From contig JAUWQI010000006.1 in the NCBI GenBank assembly GCA_030611085.1, positions 1-52,781 on the forward strand: a DNA stretch of 52,781 nt, given 5' to 3'. A program made the translations under genes and the position numbers. Under the pieces are notes generated by a model. That model saw nothing but the letters and a program-made list of their open reading frames with translations, ran no database searches and was not told the DNA's origin. Source of the stretch: Dehalococcoidia bacterium. GTDB taxonomy: Bacteria; Chloroflexota; Dehalococcoidia; GIF9; AB-539-J10. Positions 14,229-43,983 of this stretch are shown here, piece by piece (position 1 is the first letter of the stretch; the number at the start of each line of letters is the position of its first letter).

Positions 14229-14331
14229 GGAAAGAAACGCTTAAGCTGATTCAGCTTAAGCCATCAAGACCAGCTTATTATCTTTCTTATTGCTGCTAGT
14301 TTAGTTAAAATAGGAATAACTGTTCAGATGG

Positions 14332-14397
14332 TGTCATTCTGAGGGAGCATAACGACCGAAGAATCTCTTGAGACCCTTCGCTTCGCTCAGAGTGACA
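14332..14397. repeat. Family A inverted doublet
   Basis: TGTCATTCTGAG...GAAGAATCTC-TT-GAGACCCTTCGCTTCGCTCAGAGTGACA. Confidence 0.9.
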
Positions 14398-38926: not shown

Positions 38927-41900
38927 ATGGAGCTTTCCGGTTTACTTTCCTTGCTTAGAAAAGTCCCCTTTTACAAACAACTGGTGCGGCAAATATCCAC
39001 AGCCAAAGGTGAACACAGTATATCAGTGCTCGATGCCGCCAGGCCTTACTTTATAGCTGCTCTCCATAAAGAGCTTAGTTTACCTTTGATTGTGGTAACC
39101 ACCCAACCTGAGAATGCCAGGACGCTCTATGAGCAACTTCAAGCATGGTGTTCTCCTTCATCCAATTTGCACCGTTTCCCGGAAGTCGGTTCCCCCCCTT
39201 CCACCAACACCATGTCGGAAAGATTACAGGTGCTAGCTTCTTTAGCCCTTTATAAGCCCTCCGCCCCTTGTCATTCTGAGGGAAGCGAAGAATCTAGAGG
39301 CCCTATGGTGGGGATGAACCCTGCTACTACGTTTGGGGTGACAGCTAAACGACCTCCTTTGATAGTAACCTCAGCCTTAGCAGCTATAATTAAAACCGCT
39401 CCTCAAGGAGATTTTGCCTCTGCTTGCCATACTTTAAATCAAGGCATGCATATTGACCCCATAGAACTACTACATAAATGGCAAAGTATCGGCTATGAAA
39501 TGGAGGATGCTGTTGAGGTGCCTGGGCAAGTAAGCAAACGAGGTGGCATTATTGATGTTTTTCCTCCTTGTAGCTCATCACCAGCTCGAATAGAGTTTTT
39601 TGGCAACCAGATTGAGAGCATAAGGCTTTTCGACCCAGAGAGCCAACGCTCCACCACGCCAATACATTCAATAACCATCACTCCAGCTAAAGAGCTTCTC
39701 AACAATGGAAGTATCCTTGACTACCTGGGTGATAATGCTCTTCTTATTCTTGATGACCCAGAGGAAATCAAAGTTGCCATCCAGAGGCTTTATGCCCAAA
39801 GCCAGGAGCTGGAGCAAGGCGAATCACCTCAGTGCTCTCCTCCTCCTTATCTTGCCTGGGAGAAATTAGAGCCCAAAATAAGGGTAAGGCATCGTCTGAT
39901 GTTGAAATCCACCTCGGAGACCCTTCGCTTCGCCCAGGGTGACAAAGGAGACACTCAGAGTGACATAATTGAGAGCAATGGAAGGTTGCTTCGCACCGCT
40001 CGCAATGACATTGCTTTGCCTTTCTCCCCTTGTCAAAGTTATGGAGGCAAATTGGAACGATTCCTCAAGGCAGCCAGGCAAATGCTCCAACAAAGACAAT
40101 CCGTGCTCGTAGTTAGCCATCAAGCAAATCGCCTGGCTGAGCTTCTTCAGGAAGAAGGTATTTATCCCGCATTACAAATGGAACAAGCTCCCCCTCCTGG
40201 TTCAGTCACTGTGCTTCGAGGTTCACTGGCTGAAGGTTGGGAGTTACCAAATATTTTAAATTTAATCACCGATGCTGAGCTCTTTGGCTTTGTGAAGCAA
40301 GCACGCCCAGGTAGAAAAACGCCAGTGCGAACTAGCTTGCTCCTTCCTCAGTCAATGCCAGGAGATTATGTAGTCCATGTTGACCACGGCATTGCCAGAT
40401 TTAATGGTTTAACACGAATGTCCACCGATGGAATTGAGCAGGAATACCTTGTTTTAGAGTACGCTGGCAGCGACAGGCTTTATGTACCCACAGAGCAAAT
40501 AGAGCGCGTCAGTCGCTATATTGGAAGTGGTGACCAGGCACCAATTTTGAGTCGACTGGGAACGCAGGAATGGCAAAGAACAAAGGAACGGGTTAGACAA
40601 TCAGTGGTTGATATGGCTCAGGACTTGCTTGAGCTCTACGCTGCCAGGGAGGTAGCTCCAGGCTTTGCCTTCTCTCCTGACACATTATGGCAGCAGGAAT
40701 TGGAAGCATCATTCCCTTATATGGAAACGCCAGACCAGCTTGAAGCAATTACGGCCGTCAAAGAGGATATGGGAAAAAATAAGCCCATGGACCGGCTCAT
40801 CTGTGGAGATGTGGGCTATGGCAAAACTGAGGTGGCTTTGCGCGCTGCCTTCAAAGCAGTGATGGACAACAAGCAAGTAGCTATACTGGCACCCACCACT
40901 GTGCTGGCTCAGCAACATTTCACTACCTTCACCGAGAGATTGCAAGCTTTTCCTCTAAGAGTGGAAATACTGAGCCGCTTTTGTTCCTCAGAAAAAGAAG
41001 AGAAAATTCGTGAAAGCTTAGCTAATGGCACCACAGATATATGCATCGGCACTCATCGCTTATTGCAAAAAGACATCGTATTCAAAGACCTGGGACTGGT
41101 GGTAATTGATGAAGAGCAACAATTCGGCGTGGCGCAAAAGGAGAGGCTTAAACAAGTGAGAAAAGAGGTAGATACTATCGCCCTGAGCGCCACCCCCATC
41201 CCACGCACCCTCCATATGTCCTTAACCGGAATCAGGGATATGAGCATCATGGAAACACCACCCGAAGAACGCTTATCCATTAAGACCTCTGTTGGTGTTT
41301 ATGATGATACCCTGGTTAGGCAGGCGGTATTGCGTGAGTTGGAGAGAAATGGTCAGGTCTTTTTTGTTCATAATCGAGTTCAGAGCATCGTTTTAGCCGC
41401 CAGCAAGTTACAGGCTCTGGTGCCCGAAGCCAGAATCGCCATTGCTCATGGGCAAATGCCCGAGGAAGAACTAGAAAAAGTGATGGCAGATTTTATCGCT
41501 GGCACTTATGATGTCTTGGTCACCACCACTATTATCCAGTTGGGCTTGGATATGCCCAATGTCAACACGCTAATTATTGACCAGGCTGACAAATTTGGTT
41601 TAGCTCAGCTTTATCAGTTGAGAGGCAGAATAGGCCGTGGCATCAACCAGGCTTATGCTTATTTCCTATATGATAAAGGCAAGCAGCTAACTGCCCAAGC
41701 CCATAAAAGGCTTAAGACTATCTTCGAGGCTACAGAGTTGGGTGCTGGGTTTGGTATTGCTATGAAAGATTTGGAGATTCGTGGCGCGGGGAATCTTCTG
41801 GGTGTTAAGCAGAGTGGGCATATAGTTGCTATAGGTTTTGACCTTTATTGCCAGATGATGGCTGAGGCAGTAGAGGAGGTCAAAAAAGTCAGGAGTCAAA

Positions 41901-42469
41901 GGAGCCGGGAGTCAGGGGAGACTCTGGACTCTCGCCTATCGACTATCTGGACTAATGATGGGAGAGGAACAAGTGAGGGTGAAATTAGGAAGAGCGAAGC
42001 GAAGCAATCTCCCACCATATCCCTACCATTAACCGCCCATATATCGGAGGAGTATGTGCCAAATTTGAACACTCGCTTATCTCTTTACCGCAGATTGGCA
42101 GCCATAGAGCGCATTGAGGAAGTAACGGATGTAACGCAGGAGATCAAGGATAGATTTGGCGCCTTGCCAGAGCCGGTGAAAAATCTCCTTTATATAGTAA
42201 AAACCAGGATTTTAGCCAGCCAGGCTAACCTGAGCTCCATCTCCACTCATGGGAAGCAAATTGTAATAAAGCCGAAACTCCCTCACTTTGCCTCTCCCTT
42301 GAAGGGAGAGGAACAAGGTGAGGGTGAACTACAATCTCTAAGCAGGCATTATGATGGAGCAGTTAAAATAGGAGCTACACAAATAAAATTAGACACCAGT
42401 CGCCCAGGAATTGAATGGACGAAGGTGCTGGAAGAAATATTACTGAGTATAACCTGCCCTTCAACGTAA
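38927..42469 (+). CDS. mfd: Transcription-repair coupling factor
   Basis: UvrB-like N-terminus, VHVDHG RID, GDVGYGKT, DEEQ, SATPIPRT, QLRGRIGR, DLEIRGAGNLLG. Confidence 0.97.
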   Translation: MELSGLLSLLRKVPFYKQLVRQISTAKGEHSISVLDAARPYFIAALHKELSLPLIVVTTQPENARTLYEQLQAWCSPSSNLHRFPEVGSPPSTNTMSERLQVLASLALYKPSAPCHSEGSEESRGPMVGMNPATTFGVTAKRPPLIVTSALAAIIKTAPQGDFASACHTLNQGMHIDPIELLHKWQSIGYEMEDAVEVPGQVSKRGGIIDVFPPCSSSPARIEFFGNQIESIRLFDPESQRSTTPIHSITITPAKELLNNGSILDYLGDNALLILDDPEEIKVAIQRLYAQSQELEQGESPQCSPPPYLAWEKLEPKIRVRHRLMLKSTSETLRFAQGDKGDTQSDIIESNGRLLRTARNDIALPFSPCQSYGGKLERFLKAARQMLQQRQSVLVVSHQANRLAELLQEEGIYPALQMEQAPPPGSVTVLRGSLAEGWELPNILNLITDAELFGFVKQARPGRKTPVRTSLLLPQSMPGDYVVHVDHGIARFNGLTRMSTDGIEQEYLVLEYAGSDRLYVPTEQIERVSRYIGSGDQAPILSRLGTQEWQRTKERVRQSVVDMAQDLLELYAAREVAPGFAFSPDTLWQQELEASFPYMETPDQLEAITAVKEDMGKNKPMDRLICGDVGYGKTEVALRAAFKAVMDNKQVAILAPTTVLAQQHFTTFTERLQAFPLRVEILSRFCSSEKEEKIRESLANGTTDICIGTHRLLQKDIVFKDLGLVVIDEEQQFGVAQKERLKQVRKEVDTIALSATPIPRTLHMSLTGIRDMSIMETPPEERLSIKTSVGVYDDTLVRQAVLRELERNGQVFFVHNRVQSIVLAASKLQALVPEARIAIAHGQMPEEELEKVMADFIAGTYDVLVTTTIIQLGLDMPNVNTLIIDQADKFGLAQLYQLRGRIGRGINQAYAYFLYDKGKQLTAQAHKRLKTIFEATELGAGFGIAMKDLEIRGAGNLLGVKQSGHIVAIGFDLYCQMMAEAVEEVKKVRSQRSRESGETLDSRLSTIWTNDGRGTSEGEIRKSEAKQSPTISLPLTAHISEEYVPNLNTRLSLYRRLAAIERIEEVTDVTQEIKDRFGALPEPVKNLLYIVKTRILASQANLSSISTHGKQIVIKPKLPHFASPLKGEEQGEGELQSLSRHYDGAVKIGATQIKLDTSRPGIEWTKVLEEILLSITCPST
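39269..39343 (+). repeat. Family A/D composite, 75 bp, in frame in mfd
   Basis: TGTCATTCTGAGGGAAGCGAAGAATCT...GGTGGGGATGAACCCTGCTACTAC...GGGTGACA; 25 codons. Confidence 0.88.
39917..40010 (-). repeat. Family A units in frame in mfd
   Basis: GAGACCCTTCGCTTCGCCCAGGGTGACA (26/28 to 14370-14397), then CTCAGAGTGACA and TTGCTTCGCACCGCTCGCAATGACA. Confidence 0.88.
41887..42011. repeat. Stacked AGTC/GACT periodic IR, half family C and partial family A, in frame in mfd
   Basis: AGTCAGGAGTC..GAGTCAGG / GACTCTGGACT..GACT; TGATGGGAGAGGAACAAGTGAGGGTG; GAGCGAAGCGAAGCAATCTC. Confidence 0.75.
42280..42324. repeat. Full family C hairpin in frame in mfd
   Basis: CCCTCACTTTG-CCTCTCCCTT-G-AAGGGAGAGG-AA-CAAGGTGAGGG. 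Confidence 0.85.
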
Positions 42470-42514: not shown

Positions 42515-42539
42515 TACCCCTCCCTAGAAGGGAGGGGTA
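42515..42539 (-). terminator. Intrinsic terminator between convergent mfd and MFS genes
   Basis: TACCCCTCCCT-AGA-AGGGAGGGGTA, followed by CTTTATT on the minus strand. Confidence 0.7.
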
Positions 42540-42576
42540 TCAAAAAAAAGCTAAGAGCCCCTTTTCAACACTTTTG

Positions 42577-43797
42577 TTATTTTGAATGTTTGGATTTGAA
42601 AGCAAAAGCCAGTCCCACTGCTACAAAAACAAGTACAGCGGCGATGGTAAATGCTATAGCATAGCTTTCCGTAGTATCGTAGACATACGAGCCCATAATA
42701 GGTCCGATAGTACCGCCTACTCCATAAGCCGTGAAAACCAACCCGTAATTGACCCCGAGGTTCTTAATGCCGAAAATATCAGCTGTTACCGTTGGGAACA
42801 AGGCGAAGTTGGCTCCATAAATAAATCCTACTACTGCTACCGAGACGAATATTGCTGCCAAACTTGTTGCAAAGTGGGGAAATGCCAACATCATTACGCC
42901 CTGTATCGCAAAGAGAATAAGCATGGCCTTCGGTACGCCGATTTTATCAGCAAGAGCTCCGCCTCCAGGCCTCCCAACAGCATTGAATGCAGAAAGAACA
43001 CCAGCAGCAATAGCAGCATACATAGCCACTACACCGATCTCTTCAGTATAAGCTGCAACATGCCCTATAACCATCAGTCCAGCTGCCGACGTGAAAACGA
43101 ACATCAGCCAAAGCATCCAGAACCGCCCCGATTTGAGAACTTCTCCCGGGCTGCAATCCCTTACCGCAGGTGTGACGGAGGAGGTTGTTGCTTTAGGCGG
43201 GGTCCATCCTGCGGGCTTCCATCCCTCAGGTGGGTTCTTCAACATGGAAGCTGCCGAAATAGAAACAACGAGGAGCACCGCACCTACTATGAGAAAGGCC
43301 ATTTGCAGTCCCTGCGTATCTAACAAGTACCTCTGAAGAGGAGCAAACAACAGGGCGCTCAAGCCAAATCCACCAACGACGATTCCCACTGACAAACCCG
43401 GCTTGTCAGGAAACCATTTCCGCGTTGCTGGAATGGCACAGGCGTATCCCAAGCCACAGCCCGACCCCGCTATAATCCCGTAGCTAAAGTATAACCAGAA
43501 AGGACTCCCAAAATGTCCGATAAACGAGGCTAGAATAAACCCTAAACCAAGCAGAGAGCCTCCAATCATGGCTACTTTTCTTGGCCCCATTTTGTCTTGG
43601 GCCCTCCCTGCAGGGATCATCATCAAGGCGAAAAACACCAGGAATATCGTGAATGGCAAGGTAGCTGTCGTTTTTGTCCACTCAAACGATTCCATCAACG
43701 GACGAACAAAAACACTCCACGCATACACGATTCCCAACATCAGATTTAGCAGAAAGCCGGCAATAACAATGGTCCATCTATTAGTTGATGTTGCCAA
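42577..43797 (-). CDS. MFS transporter, oxalate/formate antiporter (OFA) family
   Basis: G.VYAWSVF, KWFPDKPG...G.VVGGFG, GVNYG; likely TTG start after AAGGAGG. Confidence 0.9.
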   Translation of the reverse strand: MATSTNRWTIVIAGFLLNLMLGIVYAWSVFVRPLMESFEWTKTTATLPFTIFLVFFALMMIPAGRAQDKMGPRKVAMIGGSLLGLGFILASFIGHFGSPFWLYFSYGIIAGSGCGLGYACAIPATRKWFPDKPGLSVGIVVGGFGLSALLFAPLQRYLLDTQGLQMAFLIVGAVLLVVSISAASMLKNPPEGWKPAGWTPPKATTSSVTPAVRDCSPGEVLKSGRFWMLWLMFVFTSAAGLMVIGHVAAYTEEIGVVAMYAAIAAGVLSAFNAVGRPGGGALADKIGVPKAMLILFAIQGVMMLAFPHFATSLAAIFVSVAVVGFIYGANFALFPTVTADIFGIKNLGVNYGLVFTAYGVGGTIGPIMGSYVYDTTESYAIAFTIAAVLVFVAVGLAFAFKSKHSK

Positions 43798-43983
43798 GAT
43801 TCGCCTCCTTTCAAATTCCAAGGCTGCTTAATTTTGTCCTAGCCTTAGATTTGTCTTTGTTATACCAGAAAATTTGCACTTTCAGCTTTTTGAGCGCATC
43901 CTTTTAGACTCATACGGTACGAAGAAAATCTCGCACTATATTTCTACCACCCCCCTGAATTCTCTTAGTGGTCCTACTATATA

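Follow-up and report, generated by a model that had tools for sequence, protein, structure and literature searches.

The mfd gene of an uncultured Dehalococcoidia bacterium (NCBI assembly GCA_030611085.1) carries four in-frame inserts built largely from repeats that are scattered through the same genome. The gene lies in a stretch of 52,781 nucleotides (contig JAUWQI010000006.1; hereafter the window), which corresponds to contig C27 of the genome under study (G000), a metagenome-assembled genome (MAG) of 1.16 Mb in 30 contigs with 45% G+C and 83% completeness. It encodes the transcription-repair coupling factor Mfd as one uninterrupted open reading frame (ORF) of 1180 aa (38927-42469, + strand). 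A first-pass annotation of the window had placed four segments of repeat DNA within this frame, and the segments, the peptides quoted for them and the open frame were all reproduced. Most of the inserted sequence is of repeat origin, is absent from most relatives, occupies low-confidence coil in a structural model and is polymorphic. The inserts very probably arose by in-frame insertion of dispersed repeat DNA into mfd, at loops that tolerate extra peptide, with near-neutral effect.

The four inserts and their repeat families

Repeat content was scored with a genome-wide 12-mer copy profile, in which a high-copy 12-mer is one with at least 10 genomic copies. Within mfd, 12-mers of this kind are confined to the four insert sites (Table 1), and the maximum elsewhere in the gene is five copies. 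BLAST of the four segments against G000 gave dozens of partial copies. At least three dispersed families and one low-copy segment could be told apart, so that several families are indeed involved, as had been proposed.

The main family is a 27-nt unit, here called the TGTCA unit, composed of TGTCA, a 5-nt arm, GAGCGAAGCGA, the complementary arm and TC. Its 13-nt core, GAGCGAAGCGAAG, occurs 203 times in G000 with up to two mismatches, and nine times once the genome is shuffled. Of the 203 cores, 102 are intergenic although crude ORFs span 86% of the genome. The arms covary (ATTCT/AGAAT in 44 units, ATTGC/GCAAT in about 32, ACCCT/AGGGT in 15 and ACTCT/AGAGT in six), and they are fully paired in 71 units, versus a mean of 25 (maximum 34) with shuffled partners. 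The 5' consensus is T-G-T-C (135, 140, 152 and 128 of the 203 units at the four positions). Units are usually arranged in inverted pairs, TGTCA...TGACA, of about 57-67 nt, and intergenic copies are also found in arrays. The intergenic reference pair in the window folds better than shuffles, with z of -3.7 and -3.6 on the two strands.

Another family is a GTAG-tagged repetitive extragenic palindrome (REP), GTAGTGGCGGGGTTYATCCCCGCC, with 27 genomic copies at up to four mismatches, of which 24 are intergenic, two are at ORF edges and one is inside an ORF, namely mfd. The usual description of a GTAG-REP, an imperfect palindrome of 20-40 bp that ends in GTAG, is high in copy number and is mainly extragenic, applies only to the inner part of insert 1; the GTAG tag is absent from the TGTCA units and from the CCTCTCCC hairpin. 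The latter belongs to the CCTCTCCC / CCTCTCCCTTGAAGGGAGAGG family of 21-nt hairpins, with 64 strand-hits in G000 that are mostly intergenic; the middle part of insert 3 belongs to it, as does insert 4. Overall, high-copy 12-mers make up 8.5% of the non-coding DNA of G000 versus 0.58% of its coding DNA. No Rfam family matched within the window at gathering thresholds.

The inserts in mfd are mosaics of 45-125 bp. For insert 1, a 23-mer at 39271 has 66 matches in G000 with up to four substitutions. The segment and peptide first assigned to 39269-39343 stand, except that the insert begins about 18 nt earlier, at 39251 (aa 109): the peptide 'YKPSAP' at its start is absent in relatives with an empty site, and it resembles the half-unit that precedes intergenic copies. 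Insert 2 matches the intergenic copy at 14370-14397 at 26 of 28 positions, a match noticed earlier and recovered here by BLAST together with other loci. Insert 3 had been described as three stacked families, which holds for its hairpin tail (a 96% match to 42304-42328) and its half TGTCA unit and fails for its first 75 nt or so as a dispersed repeat. For that part (41884-41962), the only convincing other copies are in G001, a congener in a separate assembly, at the orthologous site (91%) and at a second site of mfd (84%); one weak 30-nt match was found in contig C10 of G000. The end of insert 3, 'SEAKQSP', is of greater age and is found widely across the clade, 'VIASEAKQS' being present at the linker between domains D6 and D7 in most of its members. 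The palindromic character ascribed to all four segments is retained in insert 4 only, which folds as RNA with -34.6 kcal/mol (z -5.5) through a 20-bp stem; for inserts 1-3 the fold is not better than that of shuffles (z 0.08, -0.60 and -1.30) or of control segments of mfd. TGTCA...TGACA ends are present, and inspection of the mfd junctions by eye revealed neither a duplicated target site nor a target motif common to them.

Absence from relatives and position in the protein

Mfd sequences were compared in three sets: those from 29 related genomes, 118 closer homologues of at least 1000 aa, and 139 representatives at no more than 53% identity. All four segments are gaps in most of the 29-genome relatives. 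Among the 139 representatives, mean column occupancy is 0.06 for insert 1, 0.28 for insert 2, 0.21 and 0.38 for insert 3 and 0.25 for insert 4, whereas the flanks are occupied at 0.74-0.99. Runs of at least 6 aa with an occupancy below 0.15 occur in the whole protein only at 114-141, 345-357, 988-993, 1005-1021 and 1117-1128. All of them fall within the four segments, and the inserts are therefore lineage-specific, which is the outcome predicted for an alignment with Mfd of other Dehalococcoidia and of Escherichia coli. In the alignment with E. coli Mfd, query positions 401-990 correspond to residues 396-991 and positions 1027-1151 to residues 1000-1122, so that insert 3 replaces an 8-residue linker (E. 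coli residues 992-999). Among the 118 homologues, the window of site 2 is 51 aa long only in this protein and in that of G001 (mode 26 aa), and the window of site 3 is 61 aa long only in the same two (mode 38 aa, in 79 of the 118); at site 4 the length ranges from 32 to 63 aa. Other fillings of site 2, 'LLNAVSYQLSATSNGQ' and 'DRGRKGALFLALATW', are present in homologues P0027, P0040, P0061 and others, and may derive from further repeat families.

An AlphaFold (AF2) model built from 68 diverse sequences reached a predicted local distance difference test score (pLDDT) of 86 and a predicted template modelling score (pTM) of 0.80; a previous model from 98 close homologues had a low pLDDT of 54. The fold agrees with that of full-length Mfd structures, with TM-scores of 0.73/0.74 to 6ac8_A and 0.67/0.69 to 2eyq_B. 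The segments with pLDDT below 50 are 115-117, 122-135, 299-303, 351-357, 468-472, 1002-1023 and 1124-1126; five of the seven are within the four inserts, and segment 299-303 is the site of an extra insert in G001. By blocks of 10 residues, pLDDT is 56, 43 and 48 in insert 1 (flanks 93 and 94), 60, 51 and 51 in insert 2 (flanks 91 and 93) and 52 in insert 4 (neighbours 87 and 75). Coil predominates in the inserts, and the helices modelled at 329-336 and 352-360 have weak support. The structure prediction thus agrees with the earlier expectation of loops and linkers; that these are surface loops compatible with the host fold is judged from low pLDDT and coil. We take insert 1 to be in the helix-to-strand loop at the end of D1a, insert 2 at the junction before D3, insert 3 (aa 988-1029) in the D6-D7 linker and insert 4 in a loop of D7.

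The host protein has the full set of Mfd domains in a Pfam scan (Table 1). A UvrB-homology N-terminal module with the UvrA-interacting domain D2 is present, UvrB chains aligning to aa 129-266, and it is followed by the RNA-polymerase interaction domain, the superfamily 2 (SF2) translocase and the C-terminal TRCF domain (D7). The GDVGYGKT (Walker A) and DEEQ (DExx) motifs are invariant alignment columns. Its nearest named homologues are from MAGs labelled Dehalococcoidia or Chloroflexota.

Three side observations concern mfd itself. The G001 gene has a fifth insert (L002, G001:C9, aa ~296-340), missing from G000, which consists of a second copy of the 'SQKSQKS...GLWTLGS' segment of insert 3 and a 'RASAHRND' unit. 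Near window position ~39700 (aa ~258), G000 Mfd lacks a segment of ~45 aa, '...LDLDSC..EVKQRF.EDI.RLQQGQWF.GAEFYFPLF', which is present in several relatives of the same family; the difference has the look of a native deletion or of a variable region, not of something derived from repeats. Directly after the mfd stop codon, at 42517-42541, there is a hairpin, CCCCTCCC-TAGAA-GGGAGGGG, followed by an A-run; it is related to the hairpin family of insert 4 and sits between mfd and the convergent ORF 42577-43821 (- strand).

Table 1. Repeat features of the window and domains of its Mfd (window positions, or aa of the protein where indicated)
Feature	Position	Strand	Description
Insert 1, aa 109-139	39251-39343	+	half-unit remnant, forward TGTCA unit 39269-39299, nested GTAG-REP, closing GGGGTGACA
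GTAG-REP nested in insert 1	39307-39330	-	reads 'MVGMNPATT' on + strand
Insert 2, aa 331-361	39917-40010	+	reverse unit 39917-39944, partial unit 39954-39966, reverse ATTGC-type unit 39983-40010
Insert 3, first part	41887-41960	+	'VRSQRSRESGETLDSRLSTIW...', low-copy segment, ~75 nt
Insert 3, second and third parts	41956-42013	+	CCTCTCCC-hairpin tail ('GRGTSEGE') and half TGTCA unit ('SEAKQSP')
Insert 4, aa 1118-1134	42278-42328	+	intact 20-bp hairpin of CCTCTCCCTTGAAGGGAGAGG family, in domain D7, 51 nt
Intergenic reference copy	14331-14397	+	inverted unit pair TGTCA...TGACA, between ORFs ending 14228/14299 and ORF starting 14436
12-mer copy maximum 139	39266-39299		insert 1
12-mer copy maximum 10	39307-39321		insert 1
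12-mer copy maxima 31, 17, 12	39913-39966		insert 2
12-mer copy maximum 55	39996-40023		insert 2
12-mer copy maximum 40	41992-42012		end of insert 3
12-mer copy maximum 26	42291-42328		insert 4
UvrB_inter	aa 170-256		Pfam, E 3.8e-22
CarD_TRCF_RID	aa 478-532		Pfam
DEAD	aa 601-762		Pfam
Helicase_C	aa 801-904		Pfam
TRCF	aa 1033-1115		Pfam

Assembly support, selection and turnover

The stretch was found in four public runs labelled cold seep metagenome, all from one study and three of them possibly the source of the assembly. Inserts 1-3 are bridged by contigs from all four runs without a difference and at a depth equal to that of the gene, and they stand at the same codons in G001. A few chimeric joints between repeat copies occur in single public contigs, and a TATCAGCTGATAGCT-like palindrome was noticed among the loose ends of such contigs.

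Between G000 and G001, the ratio of nonsynonymous to synonymous substitution rates (dN/dS) has a value of 0.19 for 1060 codons outside the inserts and of 0.59-0.68 for inserts 1-3. The synonymous rate itself is lower in the inserts (0.15-0.22 vs 0.50), which suggests constraint or homogenisation of the DNA rather than of the peptide. At site 4 the ratio has no meaning, since G000 and G001 have unlike sequences at that point, from different repeat families, both directly after ...ATAAAGCCGAAA.

Site 1 is empty (the 'LALYEESDKPPLIVT' type) in 60 of the 118 homologues and filled in the other 58, with 14-77 extra residues that are mosaics of repeat peptides such as CHSERSEES, VIASEAKQS, PRLLRPDKSGLAMT, PMAGMNPATTFG and RPFTPFRVT. 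On a tree inferred without the insert columns, the empty or filled state requires 19 changes, with at least eight changes forced by well-supported branches. Homologues P0069 and P0085 share 1047 identical residues (~94% identical), yet a clean indel of 47 aa separates them at site 1 and their site 4 is filled differently. Throughout the clade, sites 1 and 4 are hotspots whose content turns over rapidly.

Repeats in other genes and genomes

Among 1064 crude ORFs of G000, mfd ranks first for high-copy repeat bases (158 nt in nine runs), followed by UvrA (139 nt). The suggestion that the families converge on one repair gene is borne out as far as this rank goes; mfd is not singled out, however, since UvrA ranks closely behind it and at least 20 nt of high-copy repeat are present in 64 of the 1064 ORFs. 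The repeat-bearing ORFs include UvrA, PolA, RecG, DnaE, FtsK, HypF, IleRS, LeuRS, ProRS, PheT, TilS, CarA, TruA, RNR and ACS/CODH. HypF, TilS and CarA, like UvrA, PolA, RecG, DnaE, ProRS and TruA, are among those with the heaviest load after mfd. Pfam matches were obtained for 35 of 36 other repeat-bearing ORFs tested, and most repeat-bearing ORFs show characteristic peptides such as CHSERSEES and VIASEAKQS. Genome-wide repeat counts are approximate, because about five of 29 core matches inside 20 ORFs are apparent chance matches in native sequence and the crude ORF map may take in upstream non-coding DNA at some N-termini.

In UvrA (G000:C26:8051-11077, loci L036 / L073), about 57 extra residues of repeat peptide, 'CHSDPLTSCHSDPERSEGEES...' and 'CHSERVSRSPEHSEGEES', sit between the UvrA_inter and DNA-binding domains. 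They are gaps in all 10 relatives that gave a match, in which the alignment breaks at aa 209-213 and resumes at 242-245 or 297-298.

The number of core copies ranges from 1 to 111 among 31 relatives. The genomes with a long Mfd (G001, G007, G012 and G015) are repeat-rich, and G003 has a decayed insert at site 1 and few copies. In a sample of 151 genomes from the phylum, the core has a patchy distribution and is near background in most. It is also expanded in some distant genomes, with 862 copies in G113 (control 3), 479 in G135 (control 14), 129 in G092, 117 in G081 and 114 in G167, the controls ranging from 3 to 24.

Genes of the class of REP-associated tyrosine transposases (Y1/RAYT) are present in G001, G007, G017 and G020. 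The G001 gene (L055:1402-2091, G001:C51; NF047646, 104 bits vs a cut-off of 80) is flanked on both sides by paired GTAG-REPs, GTAGCGCAGGTCT..AGACCTGC, a type with one weak match in G000. This locus looks like a REPtron.

Origin of the inserts

In the explanation we favour, short hairpin-forming repeats scattered in the genome would have landed in mfd repeatedly. Survivors would be those insertions whose length is a multiple of three, in which no stop codon is read and whose extra loop is tolerated, and there would be four such places in the protein. The inserted peptides would be disordered surface excursions, presumably near-neutral for an Mfd that remains under purifying selection and presumably works. 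Later insertions would stack on or beside earlier ones while copies decay in place, which would produce mosaics that differ between near-identical relatives. The hotspots would then reflect tolerance rather than targeting.

Several points weigh against this explanation or limit it. Units inside ORFs are sense-oriented at a ratio of 65:16 (30:6 at no more than one mismatch), with all three sense frames being read, and such a bias is not obviously predicted by pure tolerance; the sense frames encode charged, hydrophilic peptides, which may be better tolerated. For the first 75 nt of insert 3, no dispersed copies were found in G000, and the repeat origin of that part is therefore unproven. Insert 4 is backed by overlapping pieces only, as no single public contig spans it: contigs end at 42319 and start at 42298 inside the hairpin, with a 22-nt overlap; we do not count this gap against the insert. 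The insert dN/dS values rest on four synonymous differences each, and recombination that blurs the gene tree may inflate the count of independent changes at site 1. We assume that the inserts are translated. No REP-associated transposase (Y1/RAYT; PF01797) was found in G000, which is 83% complete. Of the RAYTs considered as a mover of the TGTCA units, the one in G001 is adjoined by another GTAG-REP and not by TGTCA units.

A possible though doubtful alternative for the hotspots is targeting, in which integration would favour positions within or next to copies already present, or a local sequence or structure, so that a founder insertion would seed more. The stacking of several families at sites 1 and 3, with a GTAG-REP nested within a TGTCA...TGACA pair, fits this idea, as do the different families that two congeners carry at the same point after ...ATAAAGCCGAAA, the arrays of intergenic copies and the filling or emptying of site 1 at least eight times. 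However, the junctions inspected by eye show neither a target-site duplication nor a common target motif. Moreover, the four sites are the places that the fold tolerates best, and their recurrence is therefore explained without targeting.

It is unlikely that the inserts have been co-opted, with longer loops and a longer D6-D7 linker that tune the autoinhibition of Mfd or its partner contacts and are kept by selection. One would point to 'PMAGMNPATTFG', which stays in frame across several genera, to 'VIASEAKQS' in the D6-D7 linker as the clade majority (the 38-aa form, 79 of 118) and to an insert dN/dS below 1; passages of PMC3733652 also argue that REPs in repair genes may be non-fortuitous. 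Against co-option, the content and length of the fillings turn over fast, even between proteins that are ~94% identical, the empty state of site 1 is the commonest (60 of 118), the inserts are mostly coil with low pLDDT, and the lower synonymous rate points to the DNA rather than the peptide as the level of constraint or homogenisation. A bolder reading, to which we give little credence, would make the TGTCA units (nine codons, all three sense frames) Chloroflexota-wide, coding-compatible mobile modules that home to landing pads in repair, replication and translation genes, their gain and loss in Mfd (site 1, site 4 and the D6-D7 linker) causing heritable variation in autoinhibition and hence evolvability. 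If it were true, module gain and loss would vary transcription-coupled repair and mutagenesis, and the repeats would be a source of evolvability and not neutral junk.

Repeat-induced mis-joins in assembly or binning are very improbable as the source of one or more inserts. The genome is admittedly a MAG of 30 contigs and 83% completeness, contigs break in the hairpin of insert 4, and a few chimeric joints exist; but inserts 1-3 are bridged without difference in four runs (one study, three possibly the source), G001 has them at the same codons, a filled site 1 is found in 58 of 118 homologues from many assemblies, and the frame is kept at all four sites. The reverse direction, that native lineage-specific linkers of Mfd gave rise to the dispersed copies as gene fragments, is scarcely credible even though the first part of insert 3 is convincingly found only in mfd genes of the genus and 'SEAKQSP' is nearly fixed in the clade, given that the units are ~15-fold denser outside genes, are palindromic with covarying arms, are read in three frames and either orientation within dozens of unrelated genes, and reach very high numbers in distant members of the phylum (e.g. 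862 copies in G113 vs a control of 3). An intein, an intron or recoding was rejected, as the segments are short, lack such Pfam signatures and match dispersed non-coding repeats.

Site 1 offers an unusually rich natural allele series, with which one could study how proteins tolerate random inserted peptides, whether repeats of this kind are targeted or selectively filtered, and whether the recurrent association of REPs with repair genes noted in PMC3733652 has a function. In practice, such repeats inflate protein lengths, break assemblies inside genes (as in insert 4) and can give rise to spurious ORFs and to false homology when metagenomes are annotated.

Comparison with known systems

The process had been equated with that of the Rickettsia palindromic elements (RPEs), reportedly described by Ogata et al. 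in 2000 and 2002. The comparison is sound for the in-frame insertion of a dispersed repeat and extends neither to the identity of the elements nor to how they insert. RPEs are described in passages of PMC10969869 as elements of ~150 bp, in ten families, inserted in frame in Rickettsia genes, and passages of PMC3733652 describe them as CGTC-tagged. As far as these passages go, both they and the present repeats are dispersed palindromic sequences found between genes and in frame in many unrelated housekeeping genes, the extra peptides are thought to be compatible with the fold, and the genomes are small. In G000, too, the same repeat occurs between genes and in frame inside functional ORFs. However, RPEs are ~100-150 bp long and palindromic as a whole, whereas the units here are 27 nt and their pairs ~57-67 nt, and in place of a CGTC tag at one end there is a TGTC consensus. 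Instead of single elements, TGTC-tagged 27-nt units, 24-nt GTAG-REPs and a 21-nt hairpin form mosaics of 45-125 bp with several families per site, and the host is a free-living, uncultured Dehalococcoidia lineage. By size and tag, the mfd elements are not RPEs.

The closest likeness in gene content is with the intragenic REPs described by Di Nocera et al. (2013), which carry GTAG or CGTC tags. According to passages of that paper (PMC3733652), they are often dimers or groups that encode 20-30 aa, and they are frequent in uvrA, uvrB, recB, polA, dnaE/dnaE2, tRNA synthetase and pseudouridine synthase genes. The most loaded genes here, Mfd, UvrA, PolA, RecG, DnaE, IleRS, ProRS and TruA, fall into the same functional classes as in those passages, which concern other phyla, and a GTAG-REP makes up the inner part of insert 1. 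In contrast, the main TGTCA family has neither a GTAG nor a CGTC tag, and the main text of PMC3733652 does not mention mfd. Xanthomonas recB genes carry REPs at about the same site according to the same excerpts, in which no clade-wide hotspot with turnover, as seen here, is reported.

With REPIN/RAYT systems the present repeats share hairpin units that are mostly in inverted pairs, a preference for extragenic positions and a copy number that varies between relatives; they differ in that a RAYT was not found in G000 and that another type of REP flanks the RAYT of G001. Intragenic ERIC/RU elements of enterobacteria and the QMITEs of Coxiella are likewise small mobile repeats with open frames that are sometimes fused in frame, but as described in PMC2759123 and PMC5896051 they are larger, resemble MITEs (transposable elements of the miniature inverted-repeat type) with terminal inverted repeats, and are sporadic insertions, unlike the four sites in one gene found here. 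The literature within coverage, which takes in few subscription journals, contained nothing relevant on such repeats in Dehalococcoidia/Chloroflexi or on the motif strings. 'Coding palindromes' tend to be described as peculiar to Rickettsia, with isolated REP cases in other organisms; here the same outcome is seen on a comparable scale, with about one tenth of Mfd affected by repeats. The mfd case is a rich new example of a known phenomenon, that of RPEs and intragenic REPs, and not a new kind of system.

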